Of a stretch of 64,000 bases of DNA, positions 26,870 through 62,324 are shown one piece after another. Location of the stretch: the IMG/VR virus record IMGVR_UViG_3300031952_000010, positions 1-64,000 of that record. One strand, given 5' to 3'. How positions within the stretch are numbered: position 1 is the stretch's first letter; each line of letters begins with the position of its first letter. The stretch comes from a virus. The translations under genes and the position numbers were made by a program. A model generated the notes under the pieces. That model searched no databases. It was not told the origin of the DNA and was given only the letters and a program-made list of their open reading frames with translations.

Positions 26870-28738
26870 TTAGGAACCAACTTCCTCGAATTCAACATCA
26901 GATGCGTCCATCCCACCGTCATTACTTTCTTGATTTACACTTTCATATAAATCTTGACTAATCTTTTGGAACTTCTGTGTTAACTCTTCCATGATTCGTT
27001 TAACTGAATCAATTTCTTTTTTACCGTGAGCTTCTTTTAATTCAGTAATACTTGCGGTAATTTCAGTTTTATCTTCCTCAGATATTTTATCACCTAAATC
27101 TTCTAATGATTTATTCATTTGGAAAATCATGTTGTCAGCTGAATTTAAAGTATCAACATCTTCTTTAATTTTCTTATCAGATTCGGCATTTTGTTCTGCC
27201 TCAAATTTCATCTTCTCTATTTCTTCCTTAGATAGACCTGAAGATGACTCAATTCTGATAGATTGTTTTTTACTTGTAGCTTTATCAACCGCAGATACGT
27301 TAATAATACCATTAGCGTCAATATCAAAGATAACCTCAATTTGAGGAATACCTCTCATTGCTGGTGGTAAACCATCTAAATGGAATCTACCAATAGTTCT
27401 ATTGTCTTTCGCCATTGCGCGTTCACCTTGTAATACATGAATCTCCACAGTTGGTTGGTTGTCTACCGCCGTTGAGAATACCTGTGATTTTTTGGTTGGG
27501 ATGGTTGTATTAGACTCAATTAATTTTGTTAAAATTCCACCCATGGTTTCAATACCTAATGACAATGGTGTTACATCTAATAGTAATACATCCTTAACAT
27601 CTCCCGCCAATACACCACCTTGAATTGCCGCTCCTAAAGCAACAACCTCATCAGGATTAACACCTTTTGATGGTTCTTTACCAAAGAATTCTTTAACCGC
27701 GTTTTGGATTGCTGGAATACGAGTAGTACCACCAACTAAAATAATTTCATCAATTTCACCGATAGTAATATTCGCATTTGACATTGCGGTTATACAAGGT
27801 TTAATTGTTCGTTTAATTAATGAATCTGCCAATTGTTCAAATTTGGCACGAGATAAAGAAGTTACTAAGTGTTTAGGTCCTGTTGAGTCGGCACTTAAAT
27901 ACGGTAAGTTAATTTCTGTTTGAAGTGATGATGATAACTCAACTTTCGCCTTTTCTGCCGCCTCACGTAAACGTTGTAACGCCATTGAGTCTTTAGTAAC
28001 ATCAAGACCGCCTGTTGATTTTTTAAATTCATCAACCATGAAATCAACAATCACTTGGTCAAAGTCATCCCCACCTAAGTGAGTGTCTCCGTCAGTTGAT
28101 AAAACCTCAAATACACCATCCCCTAAGTCAAGAACAGATACATCGTGAGTTCCACCACCACAGTCAAATACAACAATTTTCATATCTTTAGACATTTTGT
28201 CTAAACCATAAGCTAATGCCGCTGCGGTAGGTTCGTTAATAATACGTTTAACAGTTAGACCTGCAATTTCTCCAGCTTCTTTGGTTGCTTGACGTTGTGC
28301 GTCATTAAAATATGCTGGTACAGTAATAACCGCTTCTGTAACACTCTCCCCTAAATAATCTTCAGCGGTTTGTTTCATTTTTTGTAAAACAACTGCGGAA
28401 ATTTCTTGTGGTGAGTAATGTCTATCATCAATACTTACTCTTGGAACGTTCCCATCTCCTTTTACAACTGAGTATGGAACTTTAGACGTTTCGTTTTTAA
28501 CCTCATCATAACTTGCACCCATGAAACGTTTAATTGATGAAATTGTTTTGGTTGGGTTTGTAACCGCTTGTCTTTTTGCTGGGTCACCAATTTTTCTTTC
28601 CCCACCATTAATAAATGCCACGATTGAGGGTGTGGTTCTTTTCCCTTCACTGTTCGTAATGACAACAGGTTCACTTCCTTCCATGACTGCCACACATGAA
28701 TTTGTTGTACCTAAGTCGATACCAATAATTTTTCCCAT
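26870..28738 (-). CDS. dnaK: chaperone DnaK (Hsp70)
   Basis: [35 protein letters not shown]. Confidence 0.97.
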
Positions 28739-28854
28739 AGTTAAATAATATTTTGTGTAATTATATAGAATAAAATTTATGGAGTCAAGCTCCAAAGTAG
28801 AATACTATATAATTGTACCAAAACAAAAAAACTGACAAATTGTCAGTTTTATAA

Positions 28855-29892
28855 CTATTCAGGTGACAAAGTATACAGTCTGGAATAATTTCTTTGTAAT
28901 TTTCTACCCGCCAACCTAATTCTTGGTTGGAATCTGACCATTAGGTCGAGTAAATGTTTTGAATTTGCGATGTATTTTTGTGGTTCATTACCAAAAGATT
29001 TAACACCTGCGTAATAGTCTCGTAAAAACCACTTATATAAACGATTCATTATTGGTACCAAATATTCGGGGTTGTGTTGTTTAATTCTTTCCATTAAAGT
29101 ATCAAATAATTTGTTGGCATCAAAATTTTCCATCATTTTAGCCGATTTCCAATACTTAGTTTCTTTAAATTCGTCAAATGTCATTCTTAAACGTTTACTG
29201 TAGGCTTCTTGAGACATGGCTCTTATCTCATATGGTTCAGAATAATACACAAAATATAAAAAAGTACTCCAAACTTTAAATATTTCTTTAGGTACATTAT
29301 AATTTGTACTACCAGCATAACTTAATGTTGTATCAACTAACCCCGCCTTGTTTAAATTTCTATTATAAAATTCATAAACATGATTAAACTCGTGCATAAT
29401 AGTGTCTCTTAAATCTAAAGACAATTCATTTTTCATATCATATTCAAAGTCCTGATTAATATATCCACTGAAGTCAAATTTAGCAACAATAGTCTTATTT
29501 ACATCGTCTAATAAATATTTTGGTAAACTATCGCTTGGTTTTTTAAGATATGACCCATCATCTTTTTTAAATAAAATTTGTTCTGCGGCACCACCCGAAG
29601 AATATTTAAATTCAAATCTATCTCGTCTAAGTTTATCCATGGTAAAATTAATCCTTATCTCCTCAACAGGAAACTCTAAGAAATCATCAACACTATCTCT
29701 ATAGATGTATTTAATGTCCTTGAATTGTATAACAATATCTTCAGATATTTTTTTATCGTTACCTTTTAAAAATTTATCAACTTTTGGTAATAACACAGAA
29801 TAAACCAAATTAACAAATGGTATTGTTGCTCTTGCAACTCCAAGGTCTTCTGATAATAACGACATTTGATTTTCTGTTAGTATAATTTCCAT
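28855..29892 (-). CDS. leader-motif protein with zincin motif
   Basis: MEIILTENQ; HEFNH...EIRA. Confidence 0.65.
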   Translation of the reverse strand: MEIILTENQMSLLSEDLGVARATIPFVNLVYSVLLPKVDKFLKGNDKKISEDIVIQFKDIKYIYRDSVDDFLEFPVEEIRINFTMDKLRRDRFEFKYSSGGAAEQILFKKDDGSYLKKPSDSLPKYLLDDVNKTIVAKFDFSGYINQDFEYDMKNELSLDLRDTIMHEFNHVYEFYNRNLNKAGLVDTTLSYAGSTNYNVPKEIFKVWSTFLYFVYYSEPYEIRAMSQEAYSKRLRMTFDEFKETKYWKSAKMMENFDANKLFDTLMERIKQHNPEYLVPIMNRLYKWFLRDYYAGVKSFGNEPQKYIANSKHLLDLMVRFQPRIRLAGRKLQRNYSRLYTLSPE

Positions 29893-29959
29893 AAACATAA
29901 ATACGCAAAAAAATAGTAATTATTTGACTTTTACTATTTTAAGAATATATTTATTTCCA

Positions 29960-30040
29960 ATGATACGAAACAGAAAAAAACGAAACTATGAAAACATTAT
30001 AATAAACGGTATTACCGTTAACAATCCCATCATTAATTGA
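29960..30040 (+). CDS. Asn-rich leader peptide (26 aa, 7 Asn)
   Basis: MIRNRKKRNYENIIINGITVNNPIIN; overlaps a terminator upstream of the AsnRS-like gene. Confidence 0.65.
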   Translation: MIRNRKKRNYENIIINGITVNNPIIN

Positions 30041-30053
30041 TGGGATTTTTTTT
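30023..30053 (+). terminator. attenuator terminator
   Basis: AATCCCATCA-ttaat-TGATGGGATT + T-run. Confidence 0.8.
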
Positions 30054-30094
30054 GCCCATACGTTAACAATAAATAAACATAAATAAAACAAAAA

Positions 30095-30922
30095 ATGAAG
30101 AACACAAAAAGTTACAATGAATTAGTACAAAAGATGAGAGGATTTTTCCTTGATAAAGGTTTTATAGAGGTACCAACCCAATCTAGATTATCAATATTAG
30201 CGGCATGTGAGAACCCACATTCAATCGCTACTTTCAACTATAATGGGGAGATTTGGCCTTTACCACAGACAGGTCAGATGTGGTTGGAGTATGAGTTACT
30301 TAAGAACCCTGAATGGGAAGGAGTATTCTGTATTTCAACATCTTATAGACAAGAAAAGAACCCAATCCATGGTAGACATGAATTAATATTCCCAATGTTT
30401 GAATTTGAATCTAAAGGTACGATGAAAGATATGGTGGAACTTGAATCAGAACTTTTGAATCACTTGGGATTTAACAAACCTGTTGAGGTAAAATATGATG
30501 ATGTTTGTGAGGAATATGGAAATGTTTCAATTTTAGAGGACGAGCATGAATCGAGAATGTGGGAAGAAAAAGGTTCGGTGATATCACTTCAAAATTTTCC
30601 ATTAAGAACAAACCCATTTTGGAACATGAAACATAATGAAAATAGTGTCTTTAATAAAGTGGATGTAATTCTTTACGGGCAAGAAACAATTGGAAGTGCG
30701 GAAAGAAGTTGTGACCCTGAAGAGATGAAACATAATTTCTACACGATTGAAGGTGGCGGTTATTCCGCCAAGTTGTTTGAACTATTTGGTAAAGATAGAG
30801 TTGAGAAAGAACTTGAAGAATTCTTATCTTTGGATTTCTTCCCAAGATTTGGTGCGGGTATTGGTTTAACAAGATTGTCAAGGGCTTGGAATTTAAATCA
30901 AGTTGAATTGGAATTTATTTAA
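30095..30922 (+). CDS. class II aaRS catalytic-core protein (Asp/Asn type, no anticodon domain); likely AsnRS-derived asparagine synthetase
   Basis: GFIEVPT motif 1, YRQE...RH..F.MFEFE motif 2, GAGIGLTRL motif 3; 275 aa. Confidence 0.75.
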   Translation: MKNTKSYNELVQKMRGFFLDKGFIEVPTQSRLSILAACENPHSIATFNYNGEIWPLPQTGQMWLEYELLKNPEWEGVFCISTSYRQEKNPIHGRHELIFPMFEFESKGTMKDMVELESELLNHLGFNKPVEVKYDDVCEEYGNVSILEDEHESRMWEEKGSVISLQNFPLRTNPFWNMKHNENSVFNKVDVILYGQETIGSAERSCDPEEMKHNFYTIEGGGYSAKLFELFGKDRVEKELEEFLSLDFFPRFGAGIGLTRLSRAWNLNQVELEFI

Positions 30923-55264: not shown

Positions 55265-55350
55265 TGACGGGTTCGCGTAGTTGGCCGAACGCACCAGACT
55301 GTTAATCTGGCGAGACTTCTCCACCGTGGGTTCGAATCCCACCCCGTCAG
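55265..55350 (+). tRNA. tRNA-Asn(GUU) with long variable arm
   Basis: CCAGA-ctGTTaa-TCTGG; G73. Confidence 0.85.
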
Positions 55351-55399
55351 CAAACATTTACGAACTTTCTAATATTTATTAATATAAAATGTTAATATT

Positions 55400-62126: not shown

Positions 62127-62324
62127 AAAACAAATCTTACATAAGACGGATTAGCACCGTTGAAAGGAACCTTGGCTTCACCGCGGAGTAATTACCGTAA
62201 CAGAAGTTCTAAATGCCCCAAGGTACTATGTAATGGACCCTGCTCTGATGTGCACGTCAACAGGTGATGGGGAACAAACCATCGGTCAAATCTAAACCTA
62301 CGGTGAGCGTAGAAGATTTGTTTT
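62127..62324 (+). ncRNA. structured ncRNA candidate (~200 nt)
   Basis: 12-bp closing stem AAAACAAATCTT/AAGATTTGTTTT with internal stems. Confidence 0.6.

Follow-up and report, generated by a model that had tools for sequence, protein, structure and literature searches.

A conserved phage leader rich in asparagine codons ahead of an AsnRS-like gene with ties to pyrimidine synthesis

The leader and terminator at the divergent locus

The IMG/VR virus record IMGVR_UViG_3300031952_000010, from a giant lake phage, of which positions 1 to 64,000 form the window analyzed here (the whole stretch of 64,000 nucleotides, to which all coordinates refer), carries at 29899-30922 a short leader open reading frame (ORF) rich in asparagine codons, an intrinsic terminator and the gene of a small protein resembling the catalytic core of asparaginyl-tRNA synthetase (AsnRS). 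The divergent intergenic region (29899-30094) holds the promoter, the leader ORF and the hairpins ahead of this gene. The upstream gene (28855-29898) lies on the opposite strand (-), so that there is no gene for the plus-strand terminator to end, and this is the sole terminator in the 91.5-kb record with a promoter box and an ATG upstream and no preceding gene. The promoter (29924-29954, +) consists of a -35-like TTGACT (29924-29929), a 16-nt spacer and a TATATT contained in a TATATTTAT box (29946-29954), the arrangement TTGACT-16-TATATT (29924-29951) being a 10/12 match in the promoter scan. The leader ORF (29960-30040, +) starts with the ATG at 29960, ends with a TGA (30038-30040) and has 26 codons, seven of them for Asn (29969, 29984, 29993, 30005, 30020, 30023 and 30035), encoding the peptide MIRNRKKRNYENIIINGITVNNPIIN; the ORF list starts the same frame at an upstream TTG. 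Two of the Asn codons form CGA-AAC pairs (29966-29971 and 29981-29986).

A small hairpin, AACGGT-ATT-ACCGTT (30005-30019, +; hairpin 1 below), stands directly 5' of the intrinsic terminator (30023-30053, +), which has a 10-bp stem of AATCCCATCA (30023-30032) and TGATGGGATT (30038-30047), the 5-nt loop TTAAT and a run of eight T (30046-30053), with a predicted hairpin energy of -13.7 kcal/mol; the fold of the whole leader has a z-score of -3.55. The leader ORF runs into this structure: the AAC of N21 (30020-30022) adjoins the 5' arm, the AAT of N22 (30023-30025) provides the arm's first three bases, the last Asn codon, AAT (30035-30037), lies in the loop, and the stop codon falls within the 3' arm. 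An earlier sequence-only reading had proposed this promoter, this 26-codon ORF with seven Asn, this terminator and the placing of its last Asn codons at the hairpin, and all of these are found where it put them. Beyond the T-run, the 41 nt up to the gene (30054-30094) consist of GCCC and an A-rich, unstructured leader. The promoter scan found no second promoter between terminator and gene; among relatives the distance from T-run to ATG varies from 10 to 47 nt, which argues against a fixed promoter geometry there, and the 10-13 nt seen at two loci (L027 and L060) leave no space for a separate promoter. The GCCC after the T-run (30054-30057) is kept in most related leaders in spite of their differing stems, even in those without a leader ORF; a pairing of GCCC with the 3' arm of the terminator, checked by eye, was rejected as inconsistent across stems. 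The sequence TTTTGCCC occurs once in the 91.5-kb record. Searched against Rfam, the leader matched no family at threshold, the best weak match being Phe_leader (24 bits vs a gathering score of 55, E 0.044).

The start of the leader ORF resembles that of many genes of this phage. TATTTA(T), followed by 5-7 nt and an ATG, heads about 20 real genes of 88-431 amino acids (aa) in this genome (examples start at 2248, 2563, 7488, 13278, 31156 and 37239 on the plus strand and at 29903, 10319 and 6731 on the minus strand), and a large class of the phage's mRNAs is thus probably leaderless. The leader ATG sits 5 nt after TATATTTAT, a spacing as in the real genes, and the consensus TTgAc...TATATTTAT-N5-ATG is common to 23 independent leaders. 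Spacing and consensus together suggest that the promoter would start the RNA at the AUG or 1 nt before it (predicted start A29959/A29960), and that the leader mRNA is probably leaderless.

Conservation and codon content of the leader

Relatives of the gene at 63-89% identity number in the hundreds among phages, and 162 distinct upstream regions from these were compared. A hairpin with a T-run is present in 111 of these regions, 90 of which combine it with the promoter box and a short ORF ending at the terminator. At least 15 different stem sequences occur among the relatives, all of them complementary and with the T-run kept (for instance AATCCCTTC/GAAGGGATT, AATCCTGAC/GTCAGGATT, AATCCTCC/GGAGGATT and AAGGGGAA/TTCCCCTT). 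Comparison across dozens of related phages therefore confirms the combination of leader ORF and terminator as a real and conserved device. Additional leaders of family A, the lineage of the window, were taken from a metagenome scan, while scans of viral sequences from other queries led for the most part to contigs already in the set. The pattern GGATTTTTTTTGCCC was tried as a marker of the cassette in viral contigs and rejected, being a generic terminator of GC-rich phages with the gene in 10 of 80 matches.

For the codon analysis, the leader ORF was chosen by an automatic rule, which took the first ATG following the box that opens a frame ending near the terminator; clustering at 45% peptide identity gave 34 clusters, each represented by one leader. 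Asn accounts for 112 of the 594 codons in these representatives (18.9%), and AAY trinucleotides are distributed over frames 0, 1 and 2 as 112, 34 and 28. A first-order Markov null conditioned on an open frame gave, in 1000 simulations, 59 +/- 7 Asn codons (maximum 86) and 5.2 +/- 2.5 NN pairs (maximum 14), of which 25 were observed, and at least two Asn are present in 30 of the 34 clusters. By comparison, 43 real genes that start in the same way have 8% Asn in their first 15 codons, whole genes have 7%, and 1206 random short ORFs have 6%; the two other leader ORFs of the window, located ahead of tRNA arrays, have 3 Asn in 39 codons and 2 in 23. These comparisons support the view that Asn richness has been selected and is not a by-product of AT-rich DNA, an objection that the sequence-only reading had raised against itself; its expectation that homologous loci would keep an Asn-rich upstream ORF is borne out. 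The in-frame bias of AAY also gives indirect evidence that frame 0 is translated. The alternative frame which that reading had considered, an MKTL mini-ORF (29988-30002), is lineage-restricted and cannot account for the frame-0 Asn signal in other lineages; 7 of 9 family-A leaders retain its out-of-frame (A/G)TG in the context T(A/G)TGAAAAC, with ORFs ranging from four codons to read-through.

A second codon stands out beside Asn. The rare Arg codon CGA makes up 14 of the 22 Arg codons in the leaders vs 10% in the phage's genes, and over the 34 clusters it falls into frames 0, 1 and 2 as 25, 6 and 4. The CGA-AAY (Arg-Asn) pair, present twice in the window's leader, recurs in the leaders of L007, L015, L047, L098, L313 and L406, and may act as a slow-decoding amplifier. 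The presence of CGA bears on the question of what the leader senses. An attenuator of the coupling type preferred below might respond to the phage's own tRNA supply and turn the gene on after the tRNA arrays are expressed, as an infection timer, its codons being read by the phage tRNAs Asn-GTT and Arg-ACG (for CGA) and possibly by an AUA-reading Ile tRNA among those with a CAT anticodon. The phage does encode tRNA-Asn (GTT) and tRNA-Arg (ACG), CGA is enriched in frame beside Asn, the window leader has three AUA codons, and AAT exceeds AAC by 43:16 in 19 family representatives. However, Lys codons, common in the leaders, have no frame preference, and neither they nor Ile and Tyr codons show an in-frame excess, so that the signal consists mostly of Asn and CGA rather than of general phage codon usage; moreover, the tRNA-Asn gene is atypical and may not specify a normal elongator tRNA. 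We consider such a timer quite unlikely. The tRNA-Asn (GTT) gene in question (55265-55351, +) measures 87 nt, its variable arm being long and its D region unusual, features that could affect the reading of the leader's Asn codons.

Other arrangements exist ahead of the same gene. In Prochlorococcus phage P-SSM2 the gene lies within an operon and has no leader at all. Other phage lineages (L030, L036, L042, L050, L055, L064, L068, L072, L090, L093, L335, L337-L339, L348, L360, L362, L369, L370, L372, L376 and L387) have a different conserved leader about 120 nt before the gene, without a leader ORF and without a T-run, composed of a GATATATA(C) box, about 25-30 nt, a hairpin whose stem varies but is closed by TGA...TCA, A10, TTTC, two bases and the ATG. 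Three contigs with near copies of the phage gene (L407, L408 and L410; 71-80% identity) have been binned into metagenome-assembled genomes (MAGs) of Spirosoma, Cytophagaceae and Fluviicola; the leader of L410 is of the phage type and identical to that of L343. These contigs are probably phage DNA inside MAGs, and their binning lends weak support to a Bacteroidota host.

An AsnRS-like core and its pyrimidine context

The gene (30095-30922, +) encodes a 275-aa class IIb aminoacyl-tRNA synthetase catalytic core of the AsnRS/AspRS type. The protein matches PF00152 only and consists of the core alone, without an anticodon-binding domain, as the earlier reading had recognized. Its predicted structure (pLDDT 96.7) is that of a class IIb catalytic core, and among solved structures it comes nearest to AsnRS, AspRS and archaeal asparagine synthetase A (AS-AR), with Foldseek matches to AS-AR (PDB 3p8t, 3reu, 3rl6 and 3rex) and AsnRS (1x54 and 2xgt) at E-values of about 1e-16 to 1e-18 and TM-scores of 0.7-0.77. 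Profile comparison places AsnRS and AspRS (1e-15) nearer than AS-AR (7.5e-8), and the pocket motif QTGQMWLE aligns with QSSQLYLE of AsnRS rather than with QSPQLYKQ of the AspRS alignment, the Lys of which we take to bind the aspartate carboxylate. The possibility that the leader peptide is itself a substrate of the enzyme, in the manner of ribosomally synthesized and post-translationally modified peptides, was considered and rejected, as the peptides have no common core or recognition sequence.

The affiliation of the family becomes clearer from its other members. Among representatives at 50% identity, two fusions were found: P0127 (661 aa) joins dihydroorotate dehydrogenase (DHO_dh, PyrD) to an AsnRS-like core with 53% identity to the phage protein over the core, and P0146 (588 aa) joins such a core, 48% identical to the phage protein, to orotidine monophosphate (OMP) decarboxylase (PyrF). 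Cellular organisms carry more than 400 homologues at 55-63% identity, found in groups that include Patescibacteria, DPANN archaea, Dependentiae, Coxiellaceae and Weeksellaceae, and pyrF or pyrD lies within 6 kb of the gene in 17 of 80 cellular loci, with gene orders such as folD-pyrD-pyrE/F-gene (L477) and gene-pyrE-pyrF (L421); these operon members are themselves 55-63% identical to the phage protein. In 42 genomes with the gene, aspartate transcarbamoylase (ATCase) scored above the cut-off in one, dihydroorotase in the same single genome, PyrF in 29 and PyrD in 24, and ATCase was present in 14 of 14 control genomes; carbamoyl-phosphate synthetase (CPSase) was above the cut-off in one genome of a five-genome subset of the gene carriers. 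Fusions, operons and phyletic pattern together show, at the level of sequence, that the protein family is tied to pyrimidine synthesis, and the missing first steps of uridine monophosphate (UMP) synthesis, along with the PyrD and PyrF neighbours, suggest that the AsnRS-like family feeds PyrD.

These findings bear on the asparagine synthetase assignment made in the sequence-only reading, and with it on the enzymatic half of a rival explanation, according to which the gene makes Asn or Asn-tRNA and is induced by Asn starvation. The fold, similar to archaeal asparagine synthetase A (3rl6 and 3rex), speaks for such an activity. The protein nevertheless fails the archaeal AsnA model NF005053 (16.9-18.4 bits vs a cut-off of 322, the lower value counting against this assignment), as it fails the AsnRS models TIGR00457 and NF003037 (20-23 bits vs 343-414) and the curated AspRS and EpmA models, and its family is tied to pyrD, pyrE and pyrF, by fusions and neighbours and in genomes without ATCase and dihydroorotase, rather than to Asn genes. 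The enzyme is thus probably not an asparagine synthetase. Most likely, it consumes Asn to make the pyrimidine ring, in the form of dihydroorotate for the PyrD, PyrE and PyrF of the host. Given the AsnRS-like pocket, an ATP-dependent conversion of asparagine into dihydroorotate is the simplest guess, and Asn + CO2/bicarbonate + ATP -> dihydroorotate is a possible candidate reaction.

Mode of action and known attenuators

For the mode of action, 35 leaders were folded, each up to the end of the terminator 5' arm and in full. An antiterminator was found in none of the 35, the 5' arm not being stably paired upstream at the stage when the 3' arm has yet to be transcribed, and all of them include the terminator in the minimum-energy fold (mean -11.5 kcal/mol). 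Since there is no alternative antiterminator hairpin, termination could be avoided only by a ribosome close to the structure. In 31 of 34 clusters the ORF has its stop codon between -18 and +12 nt from the first G/C of the core stem; in the other three it reads through the terminator. Asn density, expressed as the share of codons at each position relative to the start of the core stem over the 34 clusters, rises from 11% at -60 to -50 nt to 22% (-50 to -40 nt), 24% (-40 to -30 nt) and a peak of 30% at -30 to -20 nt, and then declines to 21% (-20 to -10 nt), 14% (-10 to 0 nt) and 0% (0 to +20 nt). Given the size of its footprint, a ribosome stalled with the A site 20-50 nt upstream cannot melt the stem. 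Most Asn codons are therefore too far upstream to mask the stem, and could act only through ribosome delay.

This geometry separates two ways in which Asn codons could control the gene. The sequence-only reading had favoured occlusion, in which Asn starvation stalls the ribosome on N21, N22 and N26, the 5' arm is masked and a gene making Asn or Asn-tRNA is induced. Part of this stands: in the window's leader N21 and N22 lie at -6 and -3 nt from the core stem, so near that a ribosome stalled there would block the hairpin, at least one Asn is kept next to the stem in 8 of 9 family-A leaders, and families B and V likewise have such stem-near codons, so that occlusion is possible in these three families. 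As a general mechanism it is not supported, because Asn codons within about 10 nt of the stem are confined to families A, B and V, while 20-57 nt separate the stem from four of the seven Asn codons of the window's leader and from most of those in the other 30 clusters; a ribosome stalled so far upstream would not keep the terminator from folding, and there is no antiterminator to turn distant stalls into read-through. Starvation-induced occlusion is, in our estimation, unlikely.

The reading that we prefer, with a probability of about one half, is that the leader is a coupling attenuator of the pyrBI/pyrE kind, tuned to Asn codons and placed before an AsnRS-like enzyme of pyrimidine synthesis that consumes Asn. 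The terminator would fail only when a ribosome is on, or just behind, the 5' arm at the moment RNA polymerase reaches the U-run. With fast decoding of Asn (and CGA) codons the ribosome would stay close and transcription would continue into the gene; with slow decoding, ribosome and polymerase would be uncoupled and transcription would stop. The leader would then be a feed-forward gate, by which Asn is diverted into nucleotides only while Asn-tRNA is plentiful. On geometry, a gate opened by fast Asn decoding is more likely than one opened by starvation, the sign of the response being deduced from the position of the codons. Hairpin 1 may contribute to such a gate as an RNA polymerase pause hairpin synchronizing polymerase and ribosome. 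It is present in 7 of 9 family-A leaders with compensating sequences, where its summed energy is -31.5 kcal/mol vs -5.3 +/- 3.1 for shuffles, and it is absent in most other lineages; the folding was done per sequence because the MAFFT alignment sets the hairpins out of register for column-wise covariation. A covarying hairpin before the terminator occurs in family A and L336 only.

Several observations weigh against the coupling gate. To our knowledge, all known amino-acid-codon leader peptides (trp, his and pheST among them) turn their genes on under starvation, a logic that also speaks for occlusion, as do the positions of N21 and N22. A ribosome starting on a leaderless mRNA may not reach RNA polymerase within 95 nt unless the polymerase pauses, and the candidate pause hairpin is limited to family A. 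Three clusters (those of L009, L343 and L359) are almost free of Asn. Of the 78 cellular homologues whose leaders were compared, 22 are preceded by a terminator-like hairpin, and their upstream ORFs are not Asn-rich. Seven lake metatranscriptomes contain small parts of the sequence; contigs from four of these runs cover only 30173-30675, inside the gene, and leave the leader uncovered, giving no information on transcript starts, ends or read-through, and one of the runs also covers a stretch of the divergent upstream gene. The enzyme chemistry is a prediction, and neither pyrD nor pyrE was found in related complete jumbo phages, so that the product of the enzyme would have to enter the host pathway; P-SSM2 does carry pyrE, and no pyrD or pyrF was found in the phage's own record, which is 31% complete. 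Finally, the ordinary genes of this phage have the same distance from stop codon to terminator as the leader ORF, and five loci (L024, L026, L048, L324 and L326) have the same terminator after an ordinary upstream gene, with no leader ORF. The last two points would also suit an arrangement without any sensor, in which an Asn/Lys/Arg-rich micropeptide gene (or a short RNA) is followed by an ordinary terminator and the enzyme gene is expressed by constitutive leak, and one lineage does keep the peptide MKRYELYTPNNYIT with synonymous changes. Across lineages, however, the peptides differ in sequence and in length (7-41 aa) and have only their composition in common, a signature of regulatory codons and not of a folded or binding peptide, and the cassette, the sole such unit in the genome, goes with this one gene in every case; an arrangement of this kind is accordingly very unlikely.

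Two further features of the window lie outside the device: a match to the Rfam freshwater-1 RNA motif (RF02979, 84 bits) at 62229-62290 (+), among tRNA genes, and, two genes upstream of the leader, a full-length 641-aa ORF (26870-28795, -) that by eye is DnaK/Hsp70-like.

If the coupling gate is correct, the locus would represent a phage-encoded leader-peptide attenuator on a leaderless mRNA and an attenuator specific for Asn codons, of which no published case was found. Without an antiterminator it would probably work as a feed-forward gate that opens with an ample supply of the amino acid, and not as a starvation switch. The Asn leader would provide independent evidence on the substrate of a widespread uncharacterized AsnRS-like enzyme, which comparative genomics puts at the start of pyrimidine synthesis where the classical first enzymes are missing, and the whole would make a coherent design, with an Asn-consuming enzyme behind a gate opened by quick reading of Asn codons, when translation can spare Asn. 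A wider proposal, which we put forward tentatively and hold to be possible rather than probable, is that an undescribed enzyme makes the pyrimidine ring from Asn and replaces CPSase, ATCase and dihydroorotase in many reduced-genome bacteria and archaea, and that lake jumbo phages have borrowed it and added an Asn-tRNA-sensing leader of opposite sign. A literature search, which was not exhaustive, turned up neither a leader of Asn codons nor a leader-peptide attenuator in a phage, and no AsnRS paralogue with a pyrimidine role.

The components nevertheless have relatives among known systems. Like AS-AR, the enzyme lacks an anticodon domain and consists of a class IIb catalytic core of about 280 aa, and like AsnRS it has the QxxQxxLE motif; unlike both, it scores far under the family cut-offs and its context is pyrD/pyrE/pyrF, not asparagine metabolism. 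The leader resembles trpL, hisL and pheM-pheST, with a short 5' ORF rich in the codons of one amino acid, an intrinsic terminator and a gene that has to do with that amino acid, and it differs from them in having no alternative of antiterminator and terminator, in the spread of the regulatory codons over the ORF and in the likely opposite sign of the response. A theory of such classical leader-peptide attenuators was reportedly given by Elf and Ehrenberg in 2005. Closer in design are the pyrBI (pyrL) and rph-pyrE attenuators of Escherichia coli and Salmonella, in which a close ribosome prevents the hairpin and a lagging ribosome allows termination. In those systems, as here, the leader ORF either stops shortly ahead of an intrinsic terminator or continues through it, with no antiterminator, and the controlled gene is linked to pyrimidine synthesis, read-through being proposed here too to depend on a ribosome close behind RNA polymerase; but they sense UTP by polymerase pausing at U-runs, whereas in the phage leader Asn (and CGA) codons would vary the speed of the ribosome, and the phage leader is predicted to be leaderless, is phage-encoded and controls an unrelated enzyme. 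The nearest published analogue with a leaderless sensor ORF is found in the leaderless short polycysteine ORFs of mycobacteria, described as cis-acting ribosome-based sensors for genes handling that amino acid, in which stalled ribosomes open a structure that conceals the following gene's ribosome-binding site, a translational control induced by starvation (Canestrari et al., 2020; bioRxiv 10.1101/834739). The phage leader shares with these the predicted leaderless short ORF enriched for one amino acid; it differs in that the structure concerned is a transcription terminator and the start of the controlled gene is A-rich and unstructured.

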